Below, piece after piece: positions 496-63,267 of a stretch of 64,000 bases of DNA (positions within the stretch are counted from its first letter, which is position 1; each line of letters begins with the position of its first letter). The DNA comes from Potamilus streckersoni (Eukaryota), in NCBI GenBank assembly GCA_016746295.1, contig JAEAOA010001935.1, positions 2,866,024 through 2,930,023 of the forward strand, read 5' to 3'. A program made the translations under genes and the position numbers. The notes beneath the pieces are model-generated. The model did not search any database, was not told the DNA's origin, and worked only from the letters and a program-made list of their open reading frames with translations.

Positions 496-769
496 GTCAT
501 ATGCATTACAAATATTTGTTTCTTAACATTTGAAGGATTTCATGGATTGAAAGCTGATTGGGATATGATATTTTAAATTGAGAAGGCCACATTAAAACTC
601 AGTCATCCAAATTGGAGACAAAATTGAGTGGAGTTACCGTCACCATGTTTGACTTACAACTCTGATCTTTAACTTGATCATGATACCTTGGTCAAAGTCA
701 ACTTAAAGCTTTATTTTGAATGATACAATTTTTTTTCTTCATTGGTTTTAACCTTTTTGTAATAAGAAA

Positions 770-965
770 TGCAATGTATCTGTTGCTTGCACAGAGCCAG
801 ATCTACCAACATATAATGTGCCAGCAGATCTGGATCTATACAGTTTTTTAGGAGTAATTAGTAGAAAAGACAGCATAGAACCTGATCTACAGGCACATTA
901 TACTATGGCAGATGAAGATAACTGTTGTTTGCAGTTGACTTGACTTATAATTGAGTAGATATGGT
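770..965. mobile_element. Palindromic MITE-like element, copy truncated or degenerate at its left end (CAGATCTG core, right end ...GACTTATAATTGAGTAGATATGG)
   Basis: Shares the CAGATCT..CCAGCAGATCTGG core and the ...TTTGCAGTTGACTTGACTTATAA..ATATGG terminus with the copies at 1511-1712, 19546-19768, 40528-40748 and others. Confidence 0.6.
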
Positions 966-11737: not shown

Positions 11738-11885
11738 GTACCATAATGAATTTCAGTCAAGTCCCACTGCACAGACCCAGATCTTATATATATTTTGTTT
11801 GGAGTAGAACATGCAATCAGGTGCATGTAGCGAAGGCTGATCAAGGTCTGTGTTATCTGTGTTTAACTTGATTATATTCAAGAGG
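11738..11885. mobile_element. Degenerate fragment of the palindromic MITE-like family
   Basis: Contains ..GTCCCACTGCACAGACCCAGATCT.. and ..GATCAAGGTCTGTG..TTAACTTGATTATA.., but is much more diverged than the other copies. Confidence 0.35.
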
Positions 11886-12034
11886 TGACTGTCATAGTAG
11901 TACATATTATATTTGCAATCACATGACATTGTATTGCCATCACACTGTGGTCAAAAGCATGATTAATATATGGAAATTTCCATTGTGTGTTGTTGAATTA
12001 TCCTGAAGGAAATTTTAATATGTCATATATGTTT

Positions 12035-12315
12035 GTGTGTGTGTGATTTAGATTTTTTTTAAAAAAAATTCAGTCATATCGCTACAATATCTGCAGAGTG
12101 ACAGTTTATAGTGATGTCTAGCACTGGGGCTTCATGCCACAGACATGTGGCACGATGTCACAACCAGTCCCATTATCCTGACACAGGGCTGACCAGTCCT
12201 AACACTAACCTCTTAATGCTGTTAGTACCATTTTTTAAAGTCTTTGGTATGATTTGGCCTGGGTTCAAACCCATGACCTCCTGCATCCAAGGTAGATGTT
12301 CTAACCACTAGGACA
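12035..12315 (-). mobile_element. tRNA-derived SINE with a (CA)n tail (family A), copy 1
   Basis: The reverse complement of 12240-12315 gives a tRNA-like head, GCTCTGGTGTCCTAGTGGTTAGAACATCTACCTTGGATGCAGGAGGTCATGGGTTTGAACCC, with A-box-like TAGTGGTTAGAAC and B-box-like GGTTTGAACCC motifs. The body is homologous to the copies at 25140, 26010, 40150 and 55245. A (GT)7 tract at 12035-12049 gives a CA tail on the element strand. Confidence 0.7.
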
Positions 12316-12548: not shown

Positions 12549-12770
12549 TATTGTCTGTACTTGCCTACAGGTTGAGTCCAACTGCAAACAACATAGGCTC
12601 ACATAAAGTGCTGGCAGGTTAGGGTCTATAATGTTTGTTCTATTGATTATCTTGACAAACTGCATAGATTCAGATCTGCCAGCTCATTATGCAATGGCAG
12701 GTTTGTGCATGTGCAGATTGCTGTTGGATTTCAAATAACTGAGTACATACCATATTATCCAAAGGAACAA
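12549..12770. mobile_element. Palindromic MITE-like element copy (..CAGGTTGAGTCCAACTGCAAACAACATAGGCTC...CAGATCTGCCAGC...GGATTTCAAATAACTGAGTACATACCATAT)
   Basis: The left terminus is nearly identical to the family consensus GTTGAGTCCAACTGCAAACAACATAG. The internal part shows palindromic symmetry. Confidence 0.7.
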
Positions 12771-13984: not shown

Positions 13985-15660
13985 TAAAATAAATGGATCC
14001 ATACATTACACTTAGTACTACTATCACACAATATCAAGGGATCTATACAGTCCACTAATTATTACTATCAGATAATATCAAGTGATCTCTACATTACACT
14101 TAGTATTACTATCAGATAATATTAAGTGATCCATACATTATACTTAGTATTACTATCAAATAATATTGAGTGATTCATACATTATATTTAGTATTATTAT
14201 CAGATAATATTGAGTGATCTCTACATTACACTTAGTATTACTATCAGATAATATTGAGTGATCTGTACATTAAACTTAGTATTACTATCACATAATATCA
14301 GGTGATCTGTACATTACACTTAGTATTACTATCACATAATATTGAGTGATCTCTACATTACACTTAGTATTACTATCAGATAATATTGAGTGATCTCTAC
14401 ATTACACTTAGTATTACTATCAGATAATATTGAGTGATCTCTACATTATACTTAGTATTACTATCAGATAATATTGAGTGATCTCTACATTACACTTAGT
14501 ATTGCTATCAGATAATATTGAGTGATCTCTACATTATACTTAGTATTACTATCAGATAATATTGAGTGATCTCTATATTATACTTAGTATTACTATCAGA
14601 TAATATTGAGTGATCTCTACATTATACTTAGTATTAATATCAGATAATATCAAGGGATCTATACATTACACTTAGTATTACTATCAGATAATATTGAGTG
14701 ATCTCTACATTATACTTAGTATTACTATCAGATAATATTGAGTGATCTCTATATTATACTTAGTATTACTATCAGATAATATTGAGTGATCTCTACATTA
14801 TACTTAGTATTACTATCAGATAATATTGAGTGATCTCTACATTATACTTAGTATTACTATCAGATAATATTGAGTGATCTCTACATTACACTTAGTATTA
14901 CTATCAGATAATATTAAGTGATCTCTACATTATACTTAGTATTACTATCACATAATATTGAGTGATCTCTACATTACACTTAGTATTACTATCACATAAT
15001 ATTGAGTGATCTCTACATTACACTTAGTATTACTATCACATAATATTGAGTGATCTCTACATTATACTTAGTATTACTATCAGATAATATCAAGTGATCC
15101 ATACATTATACTTAGTATTACTATCAGATAATATTGAGTGATCTCTACATTACAATTAGTATTATTATCACATAATATTGAGTGATCTCTACATTACACT
15201 TAGTATTACTATCACATAATATCAGATGATCTCTACATTACACTTAGTATTACTATCACATAATATCAGGTGATCAGTACATTACACTTAGTATTACTAT
15301 CACATAATATCAGGTGATCTGTACATTACACTTAGTATTACTATCACATAATATCAGGTGATCTGTACATTACACTTAGTATTACTATCACATAATATCA
15401 GGTGATCAGTACATTACACTTAGTATTACTATCACATAATATCAGGTGATCTGTACATTAGACTTAGTATTACTATCACATAATATCAGGTGATCTGTAC
15501 ATTACACTTAGTATTACTATCACATAAGTATCAAGTGATCCATTTATTACACTTGGTATTACTATCACATAAATATAAAGAGATCCATTCATTACCGGTA
15601 CACTTAGTATTACTATCACATAATATCAAAGTGATCCATACATTACTCTTTGTATTTCAC
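13985..15660. repeat. 44-bp satellite, subfamily A (CATTACACTTAGTATTACTATCAGATAATATTGAGTGATCTCTA), about 38 copies, with CACATAATATCAGGTGATCTGTA variants
   Basis: ATTGAGTGAT recurs at a 44-bp period (14341, 14385, ...). The 71-aa ORF at 15490..15705 is an artifact. Confidence 0.95.
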
Positions 15661-15850: not shown

Positions 15851-16475
15851 TTGTATTACAATCACATAATATCAAGTGATCCATTCATTACACTTAGTAT
15901 TGCTATCACAAAATATTTAGTGACTAATTCATTACACTTATTATTAATATTACATGATATAAAGGGATCTATTCATTACACTTAGTATTACTATCACATA
16001 ATATTAAGTGACTAATTCATTACACTTATTATTACTATCACATGATATAAAGGGATCTATTCATTACACTTAGTATTACTATCACATGATATCAAGTGAT
16101 CAATGCATTATCCTTAGTATTACTATCACATATTAAAAAAGGGATCCATCCATTATACTTAGTATTCCTATCATGTGATATAAAGGGATCCATCCATTAT
16201 ACTTAGTATTCCTATCATGTGATATAAAGGGATCCATCCATTATACTTAGTATTCCTATCGTGTGATATAAAGGGATCCATCCATTATATTTACTATTCC
16301 TATCATGTGATATAAAGGGATCCATCTATTATACTTAATATTCCTATCATGTGATATAAAGGGATCCATCCATTATACTTAGTATTCCTATCATGTGATA
16401 TAAAGGGATCCATCCATTATACTTAGTATTCCTATCATGTGATATAAAGGGATCCATCCATTATACTTAGAATCA
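15845..16475. repeat. 44-bp satellite, subfamily B (CATTATACTTAGTATTCCTATCATGTGATATAAAGGGATCCATC), about 14 copies
   Basis: GGGATCCATC recurs at a 44-bp period (16141, 16185). Shares the core CATTAYACTTAGTATTMCTATCA with the 13985-15660 array. Confidence 0.9.
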
Positions 16476-16875: not shown

Positions 16876-18394
16876 TAGGGGTTTTTTTTTGTTTTGACAT
16901 GTATAATGCAATTAATTGTCTATTAAATGCAAATAATGTCAATTAACTGATCAGATAATTCCATTTATTGCTGGGGTTTTCTTTCTCCATAAGACCAGAA
17001 CAGCATACTTAGAACACCAGATAAACACAATAGGAAAATATAGTGAAGCCTACACAATCCTATCATTAAGGAAACAAAAACTCAGGCCACATTGGACATT
17101 GACTAATTGAATACTTAGTGTTAGATTATGGCTACACTGGACAGGTGCTTGAATACTGGGTGTTCAATTTGAATACTAAATGTTTAATTACAGCTACATT
17201 AGACTTGAAATATTTAGGGTCAAATGATGGCCAAACTGGACAATTCGAGCTAAAATACTTTGTGTCAAATTTAGCAATAAATGTCCATGGTAAGCTTATA
17301 CTGTATTACTTCCATGATAAACCCAGGGGCCGGCCCAGCATGTTTCTCAGAAAGCAGAGGTTATGCTTAGAAACAAAGATATCCTTGATAAATATTGGCC
17401 ACAATTTTGTCGGAATGGGGTGGACTTATCGTCAAGGATAGGTTTATTAGTGGATAAATGTGGTAATTGGCAAGATGGGCAAAGATCTGTGAAGTACCAC
17501 ACCCAAATATAAGCAGGCCCAAATGTATTTTTGGGAAATATTTTTAGTGGATGCAAAGTCTTAGATCCAGCTTGTCTTTCTTAATTTCCTTCCAATGTAG
17601 CACATCTTTTTAATATTCTAATATCACAATTTGGCCAGGTGGGTAAGACACCTTTTCAAGGGTATATGAAGAATGGGGAGGAAGGGCATTAACTAATTTT
17701 GCCCAGATGTGCCAATTTTTTTAACATGTACAGTCTCAAATGACAGACACAAATATATAACTTTTGGCAGAGGTAATTTTTTGTACACCATTCGACAATA
17801 ACAGGAGTGTCATGTGTAAACATTTTCTACAAAAGAAATAATAAAATCAAAATGTAAGACCATATTTATTGTCATTAGACCTATTTTAAAACAGTTCATA
17901 GTTGACCTATCAAGCAAAAATGTTTACTAATTTAGGTAATATGTCAACAGGGCACTGCATTTACCCCCTCCAAGGATTTATATGGGTATAATCTGATCCT
18001 AGTGTGGCAAATAGTCAAAGCTTGTCTATATTGGTCACTTTTAAATCCACCCTTATATTTTAAGGATGATAGAGTTTTCTCAGAAGAGTTGGCTTGAGCA
18101 GATAACTAAGGGTTAAGTTGTTCTGTTTTTGTGGTGTCAACCAAAAAGCTCACATACACATTCTCATTGATCTTTTTGATGTTTTTTATTCAGTTGACAT
18201 GTTATCTCAATCTGGGATGTCTTTTATGCACTGAATTCAAACTTTGTTTGTTTAATATGCCACTTATGTAAACAACAAATCTGTCTTGTCAGCTAATAGG
18301 CAATACAACCCTATCAAAGCATTCACTTCTAACAGTTTGTTTAGTGTCATATAATCCCATGTATGCATCTCCCATGGTCTCATCACCACCGTAT

Positions 18395-19255
18395 TTGCTC
18401 ATCTCATAATGCACCAGCAGATTTTGGTCTTTATCTTTTTGTACTTATGGTTTCAAATACAGATCCTGATCTGCCAGGAAATAATACACCAGTAGTTCTG
18501 GATCAAAGCTCTTCACTGTACTACTAATTTCAATGACAGACCTTGATCATATAAAGCACTAGCAGATTTGGGTCTATGTTCATTGTACTTTTTATTCAAA
18601 CACAGATCCAGCTGTCATATAATACACCAGCAGATCTGGGTCAAAGATCTTCACTGGACTACTGGTTTCAAGCACAGACCCAGATCTCTCATCATATGAT
18701 ACACAAGCAGATCTGGGTCAGGGCTTTTAATTGTATTATTGATTTAAAGCACAGACCCAAATCTGTCACACAAGCAGATCTGGGTCCGGGCTTTTAATTG
18801 TATTATTGATTTAAAGCACAGACCCAAATCTGTCACACAAGCAGATCTGGTCCAGCCTGTTATTGATTTAAATTGATCATGTCAAATTGATCATATTGAT
18901 TTAAAGCACAGACCCAGATCTGTCATATGATACACAAACAGATCTGGGTCCAGGCTGTTAATTGTATTATTGATTTCAAGCACAGAGCCAAATCTGTCAT
19001 ATGATAAACAAGCAGATCTATGCCCAGGCAGTTTATTGTATTATTGATTTAAAGCACAGACCCAGATCTGTCACACAAGCAGATCTGGGTCCAGGCTGTT
19101 AATTGTATTATTGATTTCAAGCACAGAGCCAAATCTGTCATATGATACACAAGCAGATCTGTGCCCAGGCTGTTTATTGTATTATTGATTTAAAGCACAG
19201 ACCCAGATCTGTCACACAAGCAGATCTGGGTCCAGGTTGTTAATTGTAATGTTGA
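18395..19255. repeat. MITE-derived satellite: about 12 tandem monomers of 67-74 bp (ACAGACCCAGATCTGTCACACAAGCAGATCTGGGTCCAGGCTGTTAATTGTATTATTGATTTAAAGC), with a 151-bp dimeric higher-order unit toward the right end
   Basis: The monomer is the palindromic core (GACCCAGATCTG...CAGCAGATCTGGGTC) of the MITE-like family. GGGCTTTTAATTG recurs at 67 bp (18721, 18788), and AAAGCACAGACCCAGATCTG recurs at 151 bp (19041, 19192). Confidence 0.9.
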
Positions 19256-19321
19256 TTTCACAAACTCAATACATGTATGCTATGGCAGCTCTTAGTCTTT
19301 CTTATTCATTGATGGGTACAT

Positions 19322-19400
<79 letters not shown>
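19322..19400. repeat. (TA)n microsatellite, about 38 units
   Basis: Pure TATATA run. It produces spurious ORFs on both strands. Confidence 0.95.
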
Positions 19401-19545: not shown

Positions 19546-19768
19546 ATATACTCACTTTTTAAAGTTGAGTCAAACTGCAAACAACAAAGATCCTGATCTC
19601 CCATAGCATCATATGACTATAGATCCAGGTCTATGTTGTTTGTTCTACAGATTAGTCCTAACAAACAACACAGACACAGACAGACCAGCCAGTGCATTAT
19701 GCACCAGATGATCAAGGTCTGTGCAGTTTGCAGTTGGACTGAACTTATAAGCGAGCATATATGGCACA
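19546..19768. mobile_element. Full-length palindromic MITE-like element copy (TATATACTCACTTTTTAAAGTTGAGTCAAACTGCAAACAAC...GGTCTGTGCAGTTTGCAGTTGGACTGAACTTATAAGCGAGCATATATGG)
   Basis: The best-preserved copy: both termini are mutual reverse complements, and it consists of two palindromic halves of about 100 bp each. Confidence 0.8.
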
Positions 19769-25139: not shown

Positions 25140-25400
25140 AGTGGCCTAATACATTAAAACAATGCCTCAGATGATCATAGTTTCAAACCCTGGCTGAGCA
25201 TGGTGTATAAAAATGGTACTAGCAGCTGCCTTGCTTTGTGCTCAGCATTAAGAGGTTAGTGTTAGGACTGGTCAGCCTGGTGTCAGGATAATGTAACTGA
25301 ATGGGTCCTTACACAGGATATTGTGACCTGGGTGGGACATCACATGTCTTCAGTATGATGCCCCAGTGCTAGACATGACTATACATTGCCACAGCTGATG
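25140..25400 (+). mobile_element. tRNA-derived SINE (family A), copy 2; head degraded, 3' tail absent
   Basis: The body ..AAAATGGTACTAGCAGCTGCCTTGCTTTGTGCTCAGCATTAAGAGGTTAGTGTTAGGACTGGTCAGCCTGGTGTCAGGATAATGT..GGGACATCACATG..CCCCAGTGCTAGACATGACTATACATTGCCACAG is homologous to 40150-40476 and to the minus-strand copies. Confidence 0.65.
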
Positions 25401-25840
25401 CCTTATGAAATGGCAGATCAAGGACTTTGTTGCTTCCCTTTGGATTCAACTGGTAAGCAATTTTATATGACATCTATAAAATCTGAAAAGACCCATTAGC
25501 CTGTGAAATGGCACTTTTCATGGTTGAGCTGTACAGAATTTTTCAAATGAGCTGATATGATTGAATAAATATGCATGGATTTGTTTAAGTGGATATCAGA
25601 TTTACCCATTTTAACATTTGTATTGCTCCAATCAAGTAACAAAATGCAAGTTCTTGTCACTTTTCACATCGATCATGCACATAAGTATAGGCAGTTTCCA
25701 TCTCAGGTTGTAATTTAATGTGGTTCTCCTCACTGTATAAAAATGAGAATACATTGTCAAAACTAATAACACTATCATAATTAATGTTGTAGATCTGCTA
25801 ATTACCATATACATAATTATTATACATCAGTATCTCATGA

Positions 25841-26040
25841 TTAGCAATCCACATAAGTGTGTGTGTTTGTGGTGGGTGTTGGTGTGTGTGTATAGCAATT
25901 CATATAAGTGTGTGTGTGTGTGTCTCTGTGTGTGTGTTTATGGTGGGTATTGGTGTGTGTAGTGTGTGTGTATGTATGTATGTATGTGTATGTGTGTAGC
26001 AATCCATATAAGTGTGTGTGTTGGATTTTTAACACAGCTT
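25841..26040. repeat. (TG)n-rich minisatellite with the recurring unit TAGCAATCCATATAAGTGTGTGTGT; forms the CA-rich tail region of the adjacent minus-strand SINE
   Basis: The unit ..GCAATYCATATAAGTGTGTGTG.. occurs three times, interspersed with GT runs. The 64-aa ORF here is an artifact. Confidence 0.8.
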
Positions 26041-26290
26041 TAACAATTTTTCCAGTTATATTGCTATGATGTGAGCAATGTGGCAGTTTGTAGTGATGTC
26101 TAGCACTGGGTCATTATGCCACAGACATGATGTCCCACCCAGTCACATTATCCTGACACCAAGCCGACCTGTCCTAACAATAACCTCTTAATGATGAGTG
26201 CCAAGCAATGCAAGCTTTTGGTACCATTTTTATAAATCTTTGGTATGACTCAACAGGGAATTGATCCTGTGACCTCCTGCATCCAGTTTT
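26010..26290 (-). mobile_element. tRNA-derived SINE (family A), copy 3; 5' head partly truncated
   Basis: GT tract, then TTGGATTTTTAACACAGCTTTAACA...GGCAGTTTGTAGTGATGTCTAGCACTGG...CCTCCTGCATCCAG. Collinear with the copies at 12035-12315 and 55245-55528. Confidence 0.65.
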
Positions 26291-31615: not shown

Positions 31616-31967
31616 CATTACATGTACTATGTTCTATCAGCACTCATCCAAAATGCATGGAACTTTGTGCATGCAGACAAGGCAATAGATAAGTCATAAC
31701 ACATAGACTCTGGTTCAAATCTTAGTAGAGGAAGAATTAAACATTCTCAAACCTGCATGTAAATGTTCTTTATCCATTTTTGTTATTTTATTATTAGGGA
31801 TTGTAATGTATATAAAGTGAGCTCTACTGTAGACTATATAGACATAAATTAGCCAATGCAGGGTAATATATAATGTAATGGTTCCATCTGTAATTTCAAA
31901 CAAGCAGTATAGATCATGACCTCCATGTACTTTATGTGATGGTAGGTAGTCTAGGTCTATGCAAACT

Positions 31968-39968: not shown

Positions 39969-40149
39969 AAAAAGACACTTTTACTACCTACCTGTTTTAG
40001 TTAATTCTGTTTAACTTTTAATATAACTTCTGAGCAAATTAATTAAATATATAAAATTTAGGAATTAAACTCACATTAGTATCATATTTTTACAATTTCA
40101 TAAAAAAATGTTGACAAATCTAAAACTGATGAATAAGGAGGAAATTAAG

Positions 40150-40446
40150 CTCTTCTATTGACCTAAGTAGTTAGAGTGTCCACCTTGGATGCAGGAGGTA
40201 ACAAGTTCGAACCCCAGCCAAATCATAAGACTTACAAAAATGGTATGAGCAGCTGCCTTGCTAGGTGCTCAACATTAAGAGGTTAGTACAAGGATTGGTC
40301 AGTCTGGTGTCAGGATAATGTGACTTGGTGGGACATCATGCTGCATACCTGTGGCATGATTTCCCAGTGCTAGACATCACTATTAACTGCCACACTGCAG
40401 ACATCATAGCAAAATGAATTGTTAAAGCTACTTTTAGAATCCATAT

Positions 40447-40476
<30 letters not shown>
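40150..40476 (+). mobile_element. tRNA-derived SINE (family A), full-length reference copy with a (CA)15 tail
   Basis: The 5' head, GACCTAAGTAGTTAGAGTGTCCACCTTGGATGCAGGAGGTAACAAGTTCGAACCCCAGCC, has an A-box-like AGTAGTTAGAG motif and a B-box-like GTTCGAACCCC motif. The body is homologous to the other four copies. It ends ..CAGACATCATAGCAAAATGAATTGTTAAAGCTACTTTTAGAATCCATAT(CA)n at 40446-40475. Confidence 0.75.
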
Positions 40477-40477
<1 letters not shown>

Positions 40478-40527
40478 TTCTAGACAGGTCACTCATAAAT
40501 GAAAAATTTGCTTTTCTTTCACGTTTT

Positions 40528-40748
40528 ACCATATATGCTTGCTTATAAGAGTCCTCCTGCAGCAAGCAGCTCAGACCCAGATCTGCCATTGCATAATGCT
40601 CCAGCAGATCTGAGTCTGGCAGTTTGTTAAGAATAATCAGTAAAACAAACAATATATACCCTGATCTGCAGGCATATTAAGTCATGGCAGATCAGGATCT
40701 TTATTATTTACAGTTTTATGTGACTTATAAGTGAGTATATGTGGGACC
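40528..40748. mobile_element. Full-length palindromic MITE-like element copy (CCATATATGCTTGCTTATAAGAGTCC..CAGACCCAGATCTGCCATTGCATAATGCTCCAGCAGATCTGAG...GTGACTTATAAGTGAGTATATGTGGG), about 50 bp downstream of the SINE tail
   Basis: The termini CCATATATGC..CTTATAAG and CTTATAAGTGAGTATATGTGG are reverse complements. Internal paired CAGATCTG motifs. Confidence 0.8.
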
Positions 40749-44974: not shown

Positions 44975-45172
44975 CTTACTTTATACACTTCCAAGTTGAT
45001 CCATCTGCAAACAACATAGACATTGATCTGTCATTGCATAATGTGACAGCAGATCGGGTCGTGTTCTACTGATTACTCCTTACCTACTGCACATTATCCA
45101 ATGACAGATCAGGGTCTGTGTTCTACTGATTACTCCTCACCTACTGCACATTATGCAGTGTCAGATCTGTGT
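44975..45172. mobile_element. Palindromic MITE-like element copy (left terminus ..TTTATACACTTCCAAGTTGATCCATCTGCAAACAACATAGAC..), with a 40-bp internal duplication (GTGTTCTACTGATTACTCCTYACCTACTGCACATTAT x2); the right terminus is replaced by the 60-bp satellite
   Basis: Its left half matches the family consensus. After ..CAGTGTCAGATCTGTGTCAGGATGG the sequence continues directly as the first monomer of the 45160-46165 array. Confidence 0.7.
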
Positions 45173-46165
45173 CAGGATGGTACTATACTTTTCATGTCTG
45201 GTACTTCATACTTTTATACTATGCAAGTCAGGATGGTACTATACTTTTCATGTCTGGTACTTCATGCTTTTTTTACTATTCAAGTCAGGATGGTACTATA
45301 CTTTTCATGTCAGGTACTTCATACTTTTGTACTATTCAAGTCAGGATGTTACTATACTTTTCATGTCTGGTACTTCATACTTTTTTACTATTCAAGTCAG
45401 GATGGTACTATACTTTTCATGTCTGGTACTTCATACTTTTTTACTATGCAAGTCAGGATGGTACTATACTTTTCATGTCTGGTACTTCATACTTTTTTTT
45501 ACTATGCAAGTCAGGATGGTACTATACTTTTCATGTCTGGTACTTCATACTTTTTTACTATGCAAGTCAGGATGATGCTATACTTTTCATGTCTGGTACT
45601 TCATACTTTTTTTTACTATGCAAGTCAGGATGGTACTATACTTTTCATGTCTGGTACTTCATACTTTTTTTTACTATGCAAGTCAGGATGTTACTATACT
45701 TTTCATGTCTGGTACTTCATGCTTTTTTACTATTCAAGTCAGGATGGTACTATACTTTTCATGTCTGGTACTTCATACTTTTTTACTATTCAAGTCAGGA
45801 TGGTACTATACTTTTCATGTCTGGTACTTCATACTTTTTTACTATGCAAGTCAGGATGTTACTATACTTTTCATGTCTGGTACTTCATACTTTTTTACTA
45901 TGCAAGTCAGGATGGTACTATACTTTTCATGTCTGGTACTTCATACTTTTTTACTATTCAAGTCAGGATGGTACTATACTTTTCATGTCTGGTACTTCAT
46001 ACTTTTTTACTATGCAAGTCAGGATGGTACTATACTTTTCATGTCTGGTACTTCATACTTTTTTACTATTCAAGTCAGGATGGTACTATACTTTTCATGT
46101 CTGGTACTTCATACTTTTTTTACTATGCAAGTCAGGATGGTACTATACTTTTATGTCTGTAATAC
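45160..46165. repeat. 59/60-bp satellite (CAAGTCAGGATGGTACTATACTTTTCATGTCTGGTACTTCATACTTTTTTACTATG), about 17 copies
   Basis: Head-to-tail copies. The 353-, 352-, 189- and 140-aa plus-strand ORFs are period-60 artifacts rich in F, Y and L, encoded by the low-complexity sequence. Confidence 0.95.
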
Positions 46166-46344: not shown

Positions 46345-47110
46345 CAAATTATCCAGATGCATAGTGTGTGATAATATCCAGATGCATAGTGTATAATAAT
46401 ATCCAGATACATATTGTGTGTGATAATGTCAAGATAGATAATGTGTGACAATATCCAGATGCGTAATGTGTGATAAAATCCAGATGCATAGTGTGTAATA
46501 ATATCCAGATACATATTGTGTGTGATAATGTCCAGATAGATAATATGTGACAATATCCAGATGCATAGTGTGTGATAATATCCAGATGCATATTGTGTGA
46601 TAATGTCCAGATATATATTGTGTGTGATAATGTCCAGATAGATAATGTATGATAATATCCAGATGCATAGTGTTTGATAATATCCAGATGCATTGTGTGT
46701 GATAATATCCAGATACATAGTATGTGTGATAATGTCCAGATACATAGTGTGTGATAATGTCCAGATACATAGTGTGTGTGATAATATCCAGATACATTGT
46801 GTGTGATATAATCTCAAGATAATATCATGTGTGTGATAATGTCCAGATAGATAATGAGTGATAATATCTAGATGCATAGTGTGTGATAATATCCAGATGC
46901 ATTGTGTGTGATAATATCCTGATGCATTGTGTGTGTGATAATGTCCAGATACATAGTGTGTGATAATATCCAGATGCATAGTATGTGATAATATCCAGAT
47001 GCATTGTGTGTGATAATATCCAGATGCATTGTGTGTGTGATAATGTCCAGATACATATTGTGTGTGATAATGTTCAGATAGATAAATGTGTGATAATATC
47101 TAGATGCATG
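46345..47110. repeat. 25-27-bp satellite (ATCCAGATGCATAGTGTGTGATAAT, with ATCCAGATACATATTGTGTGTGATAATGTC and AGATAGATAATGTGTGACAAT variants), about 30 copies
   Basis: ATCCAGATGC recurs at 46351 and 46376 (25 bp). The minus-strand ORFs of 220, 122 and 114 aa are artifacts. Confidence 0.9.
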
Positions 47111-48069
47111 GTGTATGATATATATCCTGTTATGACCCTGTAGTTAAAATTACATTTGTGTTAAAATTTGAATTCTTTTTTTTAATTTTTTCCTTTTTAT
47201 TTCATTTTTATATCATTAAATATAATTATTAATATGATGATTATTATGTTGGCAGGGTCGGATAAAAGCTTGTTAGAAGCATCATACATGTATTTATTTA
47301 AAACATAAATGTGACTCATGTAAGCACGATTTTTGTGTGACTGTTTTGTCATATTAAGTTTACAGTCAGAAATAAATATGTAAATGATTGAGTGTGACAG
47401 GTCATTGCTAATAATATTTGTTGACATTCTATACTAGGTTGCTGATATTTCAAAATCTTCATGATTTCTTCATGCGTGTGCATGGGATGATGTATTATTT
47501 TGCTTTAAATGCTTATGTACTTGCAAAATAGTCAGTCATAGTTGAGAGTCATTTTTTAACATTTTAGAGAGTCAATTTATAACATCTTACAGAGTTTCTA
47601 ATACCTTAAGAAAAGGTATTCCTGTGCTAGAAAGAGTTGTTGTTTGTATGTATGAAGAATTACATGTGTTTTGTTATTAAGGATCATAATTGTACTTAAT
47701 ATACCTTCTAAAAAATAATTAAATTCCTTGGAGAACTACACAACTGGCTTTACAACTGGCTTTAGACAAAGACATTTGCTGAAATTATTTCTAAATTGTT
47801 ACAGAACAATACAAATCGTGATTCACAATGAAAATTTGGACATTTGTGTTAACCTTTGTCTGACATCATCATCCACCATCTTGGAATGGGACTGAGATTC
47901 ATACGACATCAATTTAGAACTGTTTAGTCACAGGACTTATGTGTTTTCACAATTTTAGGACCAAATTTGGATCTTCTTCATAAATTGTAAGTCTTGTTTC
48001 ATATTTTTACCTCTTCAGCTTACAAAGCTTGTTGTCTCCGCACTATTCCTTATATTACTTTAAATGAGC

Positions 48070-48640
48070 CAATAATTAACAATCCAGATACATATAGTAT
48101 ATGATAATATCCAGATACATAGTGTATGATAATGTCCAGATACCTATAGTATAAAATAATATCCAGATACATATAGTGTATGATAATATCTAGATAGATG
48201 ATGTGTGGTAATATCTGGATACATATTGTGTGTGATAATATCCAGATAGATAATGTGTGGTAATATCTGGATACATATGATGTGATAAAATCCAGGTACA
48301 GATGATGTGTGATAATATCCAGATACATATAGTGTATGATAATATTCCAATACATATAGTGTAAAATAACATCCAGATACTTTTAGTCTATGATAATATC
48401 TAGATACATATAGTGTATGATAACATCCAGATACATATAGTGTGTGATAATATTCCAATACATATAGTGTATGATAACATCCAAATACATATGGTGTTTG
48501 ATAATATCCAGATACATATAGTCTGTGATAAAATACATATACATATAGTTTATCATAATATCCAGAGACATATAGAGTGTGATAATATTTCAATACATAT
48601 TGTGTGTGATGATATCCAGATACATATTGTACTGGAGATA
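48070..48640. repeat. Second array of the ATCCAGATACATATAGTGTATGATAAT satellite family (25-27 bp), about 21 copies, more diverged
   Basis: Same core motif, ATCCAGATACATA..GTGT.TGATAAT, as 46345-47110. The two arrays are separated by about 1 kb of AT-rich unique sequence. Confidence 0.9.
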
Positions 48641-51904: not shown

Positions 51905-53880
51905 AAATATGATTAAGTTGCAGTCAATGGAGTCATGTAGTGAGACTGCCTTATTGTGAAGTACACCATACAATCAATACTCCTTAATTATGTTGCAGTC
52001 AAAGGAGTCATGTAGTGAGACTGCCTTATAATGAAGTACACCATACAATCAATACTCTTTAATTATGTTGCAGTCAATGGAGTCATGTAGTGAGACTGCC
52101 TTATTGTGAAGTACACCATACAATCAATACTCCCTAATTATGTTGCAGTCAAAGGAGTCATGTAGTGAGACTGCCTTATCATGAAGTACACCATACAATC
52201 AATACTCCTTAATTATGTTGCAGTCAATGGAGTCATGTAGTGAGACTGCCTTATTGTGAAGTATACCATACAATCAATACTCCTTAATTATATTGCAGAC
52301 AAAGGAATCATGTAGTAAGACTGCAGCATGATGAAGTACACCATAGATACAATACTAAATTTGTTATATTTGGGAGCCATGGAGTATACTTCATTATGAT
52401 GAGATTGCTTTTTAATGAAGTTTACTTATATACAATATTTCATCATTATAGTACTGTAAAAGGGAGTCCTAGAGTATACCGGCTTATAATCAAATAGACT
52501 ATACATACAGTACTCCCTGATTATATTACTGTAAAAGGGAGTCATAGATTTTACTGGCTTATAATGAAATAGACTATACATACAGTACTCCCTGATTATA
52601 TTACTGTAAAAGGGAGTCATAGATTATACTGGCTTATAATGAAATAGACTATACATACAGTACTCCTTAATTATACTACTGTAAAAGGGAGTCATAGAGT
52701 ATACTGGCTTATAATGAAATAGACTATACATACGGTACTCCCTAATTGTACTACTGTAAAAGGGAGTCCTAGTGTATACTGGCTTATAATGAAGTCCACT
52801 ATACATACAGTACTCCCTGATTATACTACTGTAAAAGGGAGTCCTAGAGTATACTGGCTTATAATAAAGTACACTATACATACAGTACTCTCTGATTATA
52901 TTACTAAGAAGGGGAACCATTGAGTATACTGCACTTTAGTGAGACTGCCTTCTTATGAAGTAAACTATACATATAATACTCACTCATTATCATGCTACTG
53001 TATATATGAAAACCATTAATTATATTTGCCTTATACTAAGACTGCCTTAAAATGAAGTACAGTATGTATATAATGCTTCCTGTTTACATTGCTGTCCCAA
53101 AGTGTCATTGAGTTTGCCACTCTATAATGAAGTACAATATGCATATACATGTACTATGCCCTCATTTTAATACTGTACATGAGAGCCTTCTAGTTTGCCA
53201 CTGTAAAATGAAGTACAGCATTTGCATATAATGTTTTCTCATTATAATGCCAACCCCTTTAGTTTGCTAATCTACATTGAAGTACAATATGCATATAATA
53301 TTCCCTCATTATAATGCTGTCCATTGGAGCCTTTTAATATGGCACTGTAAAATGAAGTACAGTATGCATGTAATATTCCTTCATTATAATGCTGTGCATG
53401 AGAAACCCTTTAGTTTGCTAATCTACATTGAAGTACATTATGCATATAATATTCCCTCATTATAATGCTGTGCATTGGAGCCTTTTAATATGGCACTGTA
53501 AAATGAAGTACAGTATGCATGTAATATTCCTTCATTATAATGCTGTGCATGAGAAACCCTTTAGTTTGCTAATCTACATTGAAGTACATTATGCATATAA
53601 TATTCCCTCATTATAATTCTGTCTATTGGAGCCTTTTAATATGGCACTGTAAAATGAAGTACAGTATGCATGTAATATTCCTTCATTATAATGCTGTGCA
53701 TGAGAACCAGTTAGTATGCTACTCTATAATGAAGTACAATGTGGATAAAATATTCCCTCATTATATTACTGTGCATAAGAGCCTTTTAGTATGTCACTCT
53801 ATAATGAAGTACAATATGCATGTCTACATGTATGTAAGTATGCATGTTGATGACTTGCTAGATAAATATAAAACTTAATG
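51905..53880. repeat. 75-bp satellite family in three diverged blocks: 51905-52300 (GTTGCAGTCAATGGAGTCATGTAGTGAGACTGCCTTATTGTGAAGTACACCATACAATCAATACTCCTTAATTAT), 52430-52920 (..CTGGCTTATAATGAAATAGACTATACATACAGTACTCCCTGATTATATTACTGTAAAAGGGAGTCATAGA..), and 52920-53880 as a 151-bp dimeric higher-order repeat
   Basis: GTTGCAGTC recurs at 51917 and 51992 (75 bp). ATAATGAAAT recurs at 52561 and 52636 (75 bp). Identical ORF starts at 53277, 53428 and 53579 give a 151-bp period. The shared substring AATGAAGTACA..TATGCAT.TAATATTCC.TCATTATAATGCTGT links the blocks. Confidence 0.9.
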
Positions 53881-55150: not shown

Positions 55151-55244
55151 TAAATAGTTCTCTTTGATATTTTAAGAAAATATTAAATGTTCCACTTGAT
55201 ATGGTAGACATGTTATTGAATAAAAAAAGTTCCCCATGATAAGG

Positions 55245-55528
55245 TGTGTGTGTGTGTGTTTTGGATTTTCAACATAGCTTGAACAGTTTTTTCATATCGA
55301 TATGATGTCTGCAGTATGGCAGTTTATAGTGATGTGATGTCTAACACTGGGGCATCATGTCCCACACAGTCACATTATCCAAACACCAAGCTGACCAGTT
55401 CTAACACTAACCTTGTAATGCTGATCGCCAAGAGAGGAAGCTGTTTGCACCATTTTTATGTCTTTCATATGACTCTGCCTTGGTTTTAACCTACAACTTC
55501 ACACATCCAATTAGACACTCTAACCAAT
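55245..55528 (-). mobile_element. tRNA-derived SINE (family A), copy 5, near full length with a (CA)n tail
   Basis: (GT)8 at 55245-55262, then TTTTGGATTTTCAACATAGCTTGAACAGTTTTTTCATATCGATATGATGTCTGCAGTATGGCAGTTTATAGTGATGT..CTAACACTGGGGCATCATGTCCCACAC.., collinear with the other minus-strand copies. The reverse complement of 55470-55528 gives the head ..CAGTTGCCTAATTGGTTAGAGTGTCTAATTGGATGTGTGAAGTTGTAGGTTAAAACC. Confidence 0.7.
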
Positions 55529-55934
55529 TAGGCAACTGGAGTGGTCCCCATGATAAGGTAGAATAATGTTAGTGAATAAAGAATTGCCTGTGATAGGGAA
55601 GAAGAATGGTAAATTGCATCTTGGTGGATGTTATGTTATGCACATTCATCAGATAGACTGGTTTGTTTTTATTTCAGTAAATAATTAGTTTTTAATTATT
55701 GTGAATCAGTCTTTCAAAGAACTTATGCTCTCAAATTTTTTTTGAGATATTGTCCATGGTACATTTGACCTACAAAAAGACATTACACTATTTAAATAAG
55801 CATGCAAAAGTACTTTATAAGATTTCTTTACCATTGAGCTAGATATTTGTCTTGAGAGCATTCTTAATACAATGATTTGAAATGCAAATATTTGTAGTGC
55901 CTAATGGATTAAACCAGTAATTGAAGATCTATAT

Positions 55935-56158
55935 ACTATATTTACTCATGTATAAGACAAGTCCAGCTGCCAAAACAACATGGACATTGATCTACCATTG
56001 CACTGTGTGCTAATTTATCAGGATCTATGATGTCTGTTCTTCTGATAACTTGTAACAAACTGAATAGACCTTAATCTGCCGGCACATTCATAATACAATA
56101 GCAGATCTGGCTCTGACTAGTTTTCAATTGGACTCGACTTATAAGCAAGTTTAGATGG
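55935..56158. mobile_element. Palindromic MITE-like element copy (TATACTATATTTACTCATGTATAAGACAAGTCCAGCTGCCAAAACAACATGGAC...CAGATCTGGCTCTGACTAGTTTTCAATTGGACTCGACTTATAAGCAAGTTTAGATGG)
   Basis: The termini match the family: CATGTATAAGACAAGTCCAGCTGC and CTTATAAGCAAGT..ATGG. Confidence 0.75.
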
Positions 56159-56564
56159 TTGAAGAAAATTAATTATAAGGCACACATGGTGTTACATGAC
56201 CTCCAATATTTCTTTAAACAGTGTACAATGGACATACACAAGTTTTATACTGTAATTTAAGATTCTGTTTGATAACAGGAGCTGCCAAAGTAGGACCTCC
56301 TTGACTTGTGTGTGCTTGTAAATTGTTGATAACAGCAGATGACTCTTCCCCTCTCTGTGTGATTGGAAATAACAATGGTGTTATTTATGTATTATGCAGG
56401 GTGAAGGCATTTTTCACTGGGTTCTTGACTTTGCACTTTAATGGAACTAATTAACTTGATATAGAAAGGGTTTGGGCTTTATAAACATCAGTCTTCTAAA
56501 AGTTTAGATTTGCATCGTGGTATTTAGTATGGATAATTTTGGAGTCCAAATATATTCTACCTGT

Positions 56565-59828: not shown

Positions 59829-59864
59829 ACCTTCTGTGTAAGAAAGGTAATGGTTTTCAACTTC

Positions 59865-60225
59865 TTCATTATTGCCTCTATAAAGTCCCTCTGAGTCCCA
59901 TGTATAGTCATGATCATTGCCTCTGTAAAGTCCCTTTGAGCCCCATATTGATCATTGCCTGTATAAAGTCCCTCTAAGTCCCATGTATACTCTTGATCAT
60001 TGAATCTGTAAAGTCCCTCTAAGTCCCATGTATACTCTTGATTATTGAATCTGTAAAGTCCCTTTGATTCCCATATTGATCATTGGCTCTATAAAGTCCC
60101 TCTAAGTCCCATGTATACTCTTGATTATTGCCTTTGTAAAGTCCCATTGAGTACCATATTGATCATTGCCTGTATAAAGTCCCTTTAAGTCCCATGTATA
60201 CTCTTGATTATTGCCTATATATACT
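59865..60225. repeat. Roughly 45-bp degenerate tandem repeat (GTAAAGTCCCTCTAAGTCCCATGTATACTCTTGATTATTGAATCT), about 8 copies
   Basis: AAAGTCCCT recurs at about 59963, 60009, 60051 and 60091. The array ends exactly where the MITE copy at 60216 starts. Confidence 0.85.
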
Positions 60226-60414
60226 TGCTTATAAGCTGAGTCCAGCTACAGACAACATAGATCCTGAACTGCCATTGTATAATAGTAGATCATGGTCAAT
60301 TTTTGTTCTACTGATTACTCCTAAGAAACTACATAGACCAGAGTATTATTCAATGGCAGAACTGGATTAGTGCTGTTTCCAGTTGGACTCCACTTACAAG
60401 CAAGTATATATAGT
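60216..60414. mobile_element. Palindromic MITE-like element copy (CTATATATACTTGCTTATAAGCTGAGTCCAGCTACAGACAACATAGATCC...GTTTCCAGTTGGACTCCACTTACAAGCAAGTATATATAG)
   Basis: The termini are reverse complements and the internal structure matches the family. An extra partial terminus, ACTGCTTGCTTATAAATAATG, follows at 60414-60436. Confidence 0.8.
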
Positions 60415-60984: not shown

Positions 60985-61230
60985 TGTGATAGATCTTGCA
61001 TTATGACCTATTGATCACAATGGGGGAGTATGGGTGATGGATGTTGCATATGACCTATGACCTATAGGTCACAATGGGGGAGTATGGGTGATGGATGTTG
61101 CATATGACCTGTGGATCACTGTTGGGGAAAAAGGTTTAATGGTTCTTGCATTATGACCTATGTGTCACTGTCAGGGACTATGGTTGATGGAGCTTGCAGT
61201 ATGAACTATGAGTAACAGTTGGGAAGTAAG
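60985..61230. repeat. Roughly 58-bp tandem repeat (TGACCTATAGGTCACAATGGGGGAGTATGGGTGATGGATGTTGCATA), about 4 copies
   Basis: Two near-identical copies followed by two diverged copies (..GGATCACTGTTGGGGAAAAAGG.., ..GTCACTGTCAGGGACTATGGTTGATGGAGC..). Confidence 0.85.
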
Positions 61231-61239
61231 TTTGATTGA

Positions 61240-63045: not shown

Positions 63046-63267
63046 TAATATGAATACTCAATTTTAGGTTGAGTCCAACTGCAAAAAAAACCCATAAACC
63101 CTGATTTACTGTCACATACAGAACTGACTTATCAGGGTGAATATTATATGTTCTCCTGATCACTCCCAACAAACTTCATAGACCCTGATTTGCCAGCACA
63201 TTATAGTATGGCATATCTGGGTCTGTGCAGCTTGCAACAATTAGTCTTATAAATGAGCATATATGGT
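63046..63267. mobile_element. Full-length palindromic MITE-like element copy (..ATATGAATACTCAATTTTAGGTTGAGTCCAACTGCAAAAAAAACCCATAAACCCTGATTT...GGTCTGTGCAGCTTGCAACAATTAGTCTTATAAATGAGCATATATGG)
   Basis: The right terminus is nearly identical to 19720-19768. The left terminus is GTTGAGTCCAACTGCAAA. Two palindromic halves. Confidence 0.8.

Follow-up and report, generated by a model that had tools for sequence, protein, structure and literature searches.

The route from transposon to tandem repeat is already well documented. In Xenopus, the MITE, the tandem array, and intermediates of the Xstir family coexist (Hikosaka and Kawahara, 2004, as summarized in PMC12628747). The same summary describes miDNA4, a Xenopus Tc1/mariner MITE with an internal satellite (Scalvenzi and Pollet, 2014), together with a model in which decay of the termini leaves behind arrays without inverted repeats. 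In bivalve DTC84/pearl elements, each core repeat inside the MITE holds a palindrome that has been proposed as a hotspot for changes in copy number (PMC3879986), and in Drosophila virilis the internal repeats of the foldback transposon Tetris, related to the TIR-220 satellite, build tandem arrays (PMC4079207).

The tandem array described here lies in a 64-kb window—the term used below for the whole stretch of DNA that was analyzed—alongside a dispersed MITE-like family. It is best explained, with a probability of roughly 0.6, as a minisatellite-scale array that arose from the internal part of a MITE through misalignment of hairpin repeats, in two phases, with the element termini now unrecognizable and the whole undergoing neutral turnover. 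Read in this way, the array would be a clean, internally dated case in which the hairpin-plus-spacer core of a transposon became tandemly arrayed and later acquired a dimeric higher-order organization.

A MITE-like family with two internal palindromes

With a profile HMM built from seven dispersed copies, the array being left out, nhmmer recovered 11–12 copies or fragments of the family in the 64 kb, with unrelated flanks (Table 1); the matches lie on both strands and span HMM positions 2–216. The element is ~215 bp long (195–225 bp in individual copies), codes for nothing beyond short chance ORFs, and ends in inverted repeats (TIRs) of 35–40 bp (CCATATATRCTC..TTATAAGT..AGTCCAACTGCAAAC), which are present at both ends in at least seven copies. 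The features of the MITE class, namely short length (under ~800 bp), lack of coding capacity, TIRs, and many dispersed copies, are all seen. The dinucleotide TA adjoins eight of the 14 scorable ends, compared with ~10% expected (binomial estimate, ~2e-5), with TA at both ends of one copy being rare and the termini themselves being TA-rich; this pattern suggests a decayed TA target-site duplication of the Tc1/mariner type. The copies differ pairwise by 34% (K2P 0.46), indicating that the family is old. The three dispersed copies named in an earlier note on this DNA all exist (first three rows of Table 1) and are accompanied by at least eight further copies or fragments, and the one nearest to the array is, as had been stated, intact over its full length. 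Its nearness, which had been pointed out, is ordinary at a density of one copy per ~5 kb.

Alignment of the dispersed copies gives the order TIR, first palindrome (pal1), spacer, second palindrome (pal2), TIR. The two palindromes (pal1, ..CCTGATCTGCC-loop-GCAGATCAGGGTC..; pal2, ..CCCAGATCTGCC-loop-GGCAGATCTGGGTC..) are each ~48 bp long and form direct repeats 84 bp apart, with a central spacer of ~35 bp (GTTGTTTGTTCTACTGATTACTCCTAACAAACTG) between them. Each element was thought to hold the palindromic core in single copy; it holds two, with the exact core motif intact in only two copies. By inspection of the alignment, pal1 and pal2 differ consistently by a compensated arm change (CCTGATC...GATCAGG in pal1 and CCAGATC...GATCTGG in pal2), and because the change is compensated in both arms, stem pairing has been kept in both palindromes. 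Among the array monomers (m00–m11, described below), m03–m11 are of the pal2 type, and m01 and m02 join a left arm of the pal1 type to a right arm of the pal2 type. Folded as single-stranded DNA, the copy at 40528–40744 forms two internal hairpins (−39.4 kcal/mol, z = −5.8).

Homology ties the array monomer to the internal palindrome and spacer of this element, at a level far beyond chance. The MITE HMM, from whose construction the array had been excluded, matches the array repeatedly at E = 1e-9 to 1e-11, and these matches run from HMM position ~35/57 to ~172/186, thus covering pal1, spacer, and pal2 and never the termini. Reciprocally, an HMM of the monomer alone matches the palindromes of dispersed copies (1554–1606, E = 7e-10; 791–846, E = 5e-8; 40572–40624, E = 1e-7). 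The best E values in 10 dinucleotide-shuffled windows (640 kb) were 0.55 for the MITE HMM and 0.41 for the monomer HMM. Furthermore, the monomer is colinear with the palindrome and central spacer of the MITE, the comparison over the whole unit giving z = 4–8. The link between monomer and MITE core that had been noticed earlier is thus borne out by reciprocal profiles and shuffled controls, with the monomer corresponding to an internal segment of the element.

Table 1. Positions of MITE copies, array segments, and neighboring repeats in the 64-kb window
Feature	Position	Strand	Evidence and details
Dispersed MITE	1509–1705	−	nhmmer, multiple alignment
Full-length solo MITE, TIR-pal1-spacer-pal2-TIR	19546–19768	+	nhmmer, HMM 2–216, E = 1.1e-59
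Best-preserved dispersed MITE	40528–40744	−	nhmmer, E = 3.3e-60; exact CAGATCTG...CAGATCTGGGTC motif
MITE copy or fragment	762–965		
MITE copy or fragment	11755–11871		weak
MITE copy or fragment	12555–12749		adjoins an array
MITE copy or fragment	25392–25469		end only
MITE copy or fragment	31812–31967		weak; adjoins an array
MITE copy or fragment	55939–56159		
MITE copy or fragment	60215–60414		adjoins an array
MITE copy or fragment	63051–63267		
MITE with internal duplication, left TIR and pal1 kept, right TIR absent	44982–45176	+	nhmmer, HMM 6–175 and 74–173; adjoins an array
Old left block of the array, m00–m03	18385–18673		starts 18385, 18459, 18536, 18602; lengths 74, 77, 66, 72 bp; each a decayed palindrome plus linker
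m04–m06	18674–18907		starts 18674, 18751, 18818; lengths 77, 67, 90 bp; 91–97% alike; TRF 67 bp × 2.2 at 98%
Young block of the array, m07–m11, dimeric higher-order repeat	18908–19270		starts 18908, 18982, 19056, 19123, 19197; A(74)-B(74)-A(67)-B(74)-A(74, last)
Degenerate terminal half-palindrome (loop plus right arm)	19271–19299		nhmmer, 19193–19299 on MITE HMM 37–172
(TA)38 microsatellite	19324–19400		TRF; 24 bp right of the array
Second dispersed family, ~280 bp	12031–12309; 25206–25393; 26012–26285; 40162–40443; 55244–55532		

Structure and relative age of the array

The array had been placed at 18395–19255 and credited with about 12 monomers. It is real, extends over 18385–19299 (~0.9 kb; TRF periods of 67, 74, 77, and 141 bp), and consists of 12 monomers of 66–90 bp (m00–m11, delimited by the ACAGA with which the left palindrome arm starts) followed by a degenerate half unit; the 67-bp monomer quoted earlier matches 19056–19122 at 98.5%. 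The stretch at 18395–18720, formerly taken for a diverged left half of a MITE, is made up of four or five old monomers that fall on HMM 41–186 and include no TIR. Similarity alternates within the left block (identity of 86% between m01 and m03 and of 81% between m00 and m02), and nhmmer aligns m00 plus m01 to MITE HMM 57–186 and m02 plus m03 to HMM 41–183. The alternation suggests that a two-palindrome unit of ~145 bp may have been duplicated early. In the middle of the array, m06 is closed by an irregular junction (18863–18907) that contains small local duplications (aaattgatcat occurs twice).

The right part of the array shows higher-order periodicity, though over 2.6 units only, with a 141-bp period (67 + 74 bp) at 93% matches compared with 81–82% at the monomer period (TRF). 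Within this young block, alternate monomers are closer to each other than neighbors are (identities of 93–99% for A/A, 96% for B/B, and 82–91% for A/B). The A and B types differ by substitutions as well as in loop length; the A-type hairpin has a folding energy of −14.4 kcal/mol (z = −4.6), and the B-type hairpin has decayed (z = 0.07). Of the dimeric higher-order repeat reported earlier, the dimer itself stands, in the young right block, and its size is to be corrected from 151 to 141 bp. The 7-bp insertion (TATGATA) by which alternate monomers had been said to differ is instead a loop deletion in the 67-bp form: the long loop is found in the MITE and in the older monomers, the 74- and 77-bp forms keep CATATGATACAC, and the 67-bp form is without 7 bp of the loop, so that it is this form that carries the derived state. 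The deletion is common to m05, m06, m09, and m11 and is missing from m07, a monomer that otherwise shares 99% identity with m09, indicating conversion or unequal exchange.

Mean K2P distances fall from 0.42 among the left-block monomers to 0.10 for the right block and 0.04 inside the A or B type, compared with 0.46 among the MITE copies, showing a two-phase history in which an old event was followed, much later, by re-amplification of one lineage. Since divergence among the left monomers nearly equals that among the MITE copies, the first duplications must be about as old as the dispersal of the family; the array thus records an old event, and not the "direct snapshot" of a transition described earlier. 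The designation as a satellite goes too far as well, since in place of many kilobases and/or many loci there is one 0.9-kb array in the window.

No second locus of the array unit was found in the 64-kb window, in metagenome and viral contigs, or in the protein collection. Two matches to the gapped pattern in metagenomes lie in GC-rich, bacterial-type coding sequence in which the pattern alone fits, and both were set aside as chance matches, the first after a formal check. The exact gapped pattern has no match in the viral contigs, and neither the six-frame translations of the 141-bp unit nor the translation of the MITE consensus and the ORFs from five other arrays have a match in the protein collection. 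A full-text literature search with k-mers drawn from the monomer and the MITE, as well as from other arrays and the SINE-like family described below, returned unrelated primers only.

Origin of the array and competing explanations

In the preferred reading, misalignment between pal1 and pal2, the two hairpin-forming direct repeats, would have generated extra palindrome-plus-spacer units, either by unequal exchange or during replication, through slippage or template switching where hairpins extrude, with each event adding one unit. Of the two phases, the ancient one accounts for the MITE-like last unit at the right edge and, at the left edge, for the four monomers that have diverged strongly. 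Much later, one monomer lineage with a shortened loop and linker was re-amplified; it is now diverging into the 141-bp A/B dimer, with the 7-bp loop deletion spread in a patchy manner by conversion or unequal exchange. Nothing points to a cellular function of the array, which is best read as a product of neutral repeat turnover.

A second, incipient, and independent case of MITE-core duplication lies 26 kb from the array, in the copy at 44982–45176, where a unit composed of the spacer and the right half of pal2 is duplicated (45050–45167; 57 bp × 2.1, TRF; z = 19.9 against the MITE consensus). This copy, with its 2.1 internal units and left TIR, is the one candidate intermediate in the window, in which no MITE that combines at least three full units with both TIRs was found. 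The duplication runs straight into an unrelated array of 56 bp × 17.5 (45171–46159), and derivation of that array from the adjoining 57-bp MITE unit was rejected (z = −1.4).

The direction from MITE to array is favored, with moderate strength and short of proof, as the more parsimonious of the two. The loop forms a graded series from the MITE (CATTATGCA) through m00 (CATAATGCA) and m03/m04 (CATATAATACA/CATATGATACA) to the form with the 7-bp deletion. The last linker (m11), which lies just before the terminal half-palindrome, still bears the MITE-like spacer motif CACAAACTCAAT; compared with the MITE spacer as a whole, it gives z = 3.6, with 0 of 2000 shuffles as good, and the linker of m02 gives p = 0.003. 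The linkers of interior monomers are marginal in their similarity to the MITE spacer, and those of m01 and m03 have no significant match to the MITE spacer or TIR. An origin of the m01 and m03 linkers from the inner right TIR, with which they have the 8-mer TGGACTAC in common, was also considered and is not significant. Since array edges escape homogenization and the edges here are MITE-like, the MITE-like state is probably ancestral. The strength of this polarity argument is moderate because there is no clear trend from edge to center in how closely the monomers as a whole match the MITE consensus, polarity being visible only in loop and linker characters.

Whether MITE termini flank the array had been named as a check, and none were found. 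In an nhmmer search of the array flanks (600-base search space, and also with the (TA)38 tract collapsed), HMM positions 1–35 and 186–216 gave no match; in a scan with the TIR consensus, the TIR-likeness of the flanks stays within background (empirical p = 0.21 on the left and 0.10 on the right); and no inverted or direct repeat joining the two flanks was found. The flanks are unique within the window, and the array is not bounded by element termini as a composite form would be. With neither a TIR nor a target-site duplication at the array, an in situ origin from an inserted MITE is no more than plausible, and the termini, which are no longer recognizable, were either lost or never part of the amplified piece. 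That the (TA)38 tract is tied to a former MITE terminus (TATATATGG followed by TA) is only a guess.

This absence of termini is what an alternative explanation, which is unlikely but carries some weight, would lead one to expect: an internal MITE fragment without TIRs may have been deposited by abortive gap repair following excision, by ectopic conversion, or by circular DNA that reinserted, and only then amplified. Both ends of the array do lie inside MITE-homologous sequence (left end at HMM ~57, right end at ~172), and beyond them come unique flanks in which no termini are seen. However, divergence of 30–40% since the event could alone have erased termini of 35 bp, the loss of termini is the exact prediction of the miDNA4 model as outlined in PMC12628747, and direct evidence for a mechanism of fragment transfer is absent.

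A little less probable again is the reverse polarity, with the hairpin tandem repeat coming first, a dimer of it being captured between TIRs and dispersed as the MITE, and the array being what is left of the source. In divergence the oldest monomers equal the MITE family, so that age cannot order array and MITE; in addition, the core of the MITE already has the form of a dimer of the unit, the array has no flanking TIRs, and, according to the summary in PMC12628747, capture of a repeat has been proposed for miDNA4. Against this order stand the 11–12 TIR-bearing copies in the window compared with one array, the derived loop and linker deletions of the interior monomers compared with the MITE-like state of the edge monomers, and the fact that an array of this unit was found nowhere else in the window or the public collections searched. 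The direction proposed in the earlier note is thus supported by the edge and interior monomers but not proven, and capture by the MITE stands as the alternative to it.

Finally, although short palindromes recur randomly in AT-rich DNA, a chance or convergent resemblance between unrelated palindromes around a BglII-like AGATCT core has next to no probability and is refuted by the profile searches (reciprocal E of 1e-9 to 1e-11 against a best value of ~0.4 in shuffled sequence), by an exact 20-base gapped pattern seen eight times where none is expected, and by colinearity that reaches into the spacer.

Repeat load of the window and comparison with known systems

The window consists of eukaryotic non-coding DNA (33% G+C) in which no tRNA, no Rfam family at the gathering threshold, and no credible ORF was found. 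Its observed/expected CpG ratio is 0.055 (95 CpGs in 64 kb), with a TG/CA ratio of 1.4 and normal GpC; this value is several-fold below that of typical vertebrate genomes. Such extreme depletion implies either germline CpG methylation that is very heavy and of long standing or a CpG mutability that is unusually high. A second dispersed family (Table 1) has a head resembling the A and B boxes of pol III promoters (TGGCCTAATGGTTAG ... GGTTCRAACCC) and a (CA)n tail, and from these features looks like a tRNA-derived SINE; its consensus is not called a tRNA by ARAGORN, and one copy scanned (40100–40500) has no Rfam tRNA match. All five of its copies sit 0–400 bp from a MITE copy.

Tandem repeats make up 41% of the window, in 56 arrays (TRF), most of which are distinct minisatellites with units of 25–115 bp and a length of 0.2–2.8 kb each. 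By their consensus units, some neighboring arrays look related (14002–15656 and 15853–16470; 46350–47127 and 48082–48627; and arrays within 51912–53823). An array of 45 bp × 8 (59863–60221) stops exactly at the left TIR of the MITE copy starting at 60215 and does not resume past the element; its unit is weakly TIR-like (CCATGTATACTC..TATAAAGTCC..AAGTCC), at z = 5.1 with 4 of 5000 shuffles as good, a value uncorrected for 33 arrays. The unit of the array at 61002–61236 (54/48 bp) has TTGCATAATG..CCTATAGATCA..GGG.TATG in common with pal1 of the MITE, at z = 3.4 with 29 of 5000 shuffles as good. This resemblance is not significant after correction, and the array is at most a much older MITE-derived one.

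MITE copies adjoin unrelated tandem arrays more often than expected: of the 12 copies, four have an array of 100 bp or longer no more than 25 bp away (Table 1), compared with 0.49 by chance (P = 0.0006, 5000 random placements). It is conceivable, but rather doubtful, that the hairpin MITE family acts as a general nucleator of tandem arrays, built from its own core (18385–19299 and 45050–45167), from its terminus (59863–60221), and from adjacent unrelated sequence. If this were true, MITE hairpins would be a main cause of the extraordinary minisatellite load. The main value of the locus would be that it offers a way into asking, genome-wide, whether MITEs seed the unusually dense minisatellites of this genome.

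With respect to the systems described so far, the array resembles Xstir in that the tandem unit derives from internal MITE sequence and in that, as reported in PMC12628747, stem-loop formation has been invoked as the driver. By the description given there, Xstir arrays are abundant throughout the genome, whereas the window holds one 0.9-kb array and one 2.1-copy duplication in 64 kb. With miDNA4, as portrayed in the same source, it has in common a MITE, here probably with a TA duplication, that holds a repeat unit of variable copy number. The authors of the miDNA4 study are described as favoring capture of a pre-existing repeat, whereas the polarity within the present array favors the direction from MITE to array, and, unlike in the case of miDNA4 so described, no composite element that has both TIRs together with more than two units is seen in this window.

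The DTC84/pearl elements also carry core repeats inside a MITE and have a microsatellite at one end of the array, comparable with the (TA)38 tract here. They hold up to five core repeats of the ~160-bp class, which are enclosed by short inverted repeats and whose variants follow a fixed order, and their duplication is AA; the unit described here measures 67–77 bp, TA is the probable target-site duplication, and there are no flanking modules around the array. The likeness to Tetris lies in a non-autonomous element with an inverted-repeat architecture whose internal repeats serve as the building blocks of arrays. TIR-220 is located inside long TIRs and forms kilobase-sized arrays in beta-heterochromatin, as confirmed by FISH, whereas here the repeated piece is the central palindrome with its spacer, in an array that stays below 1 kb. 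Overall, the locus adds a case to an established model, rather than posing a new question.
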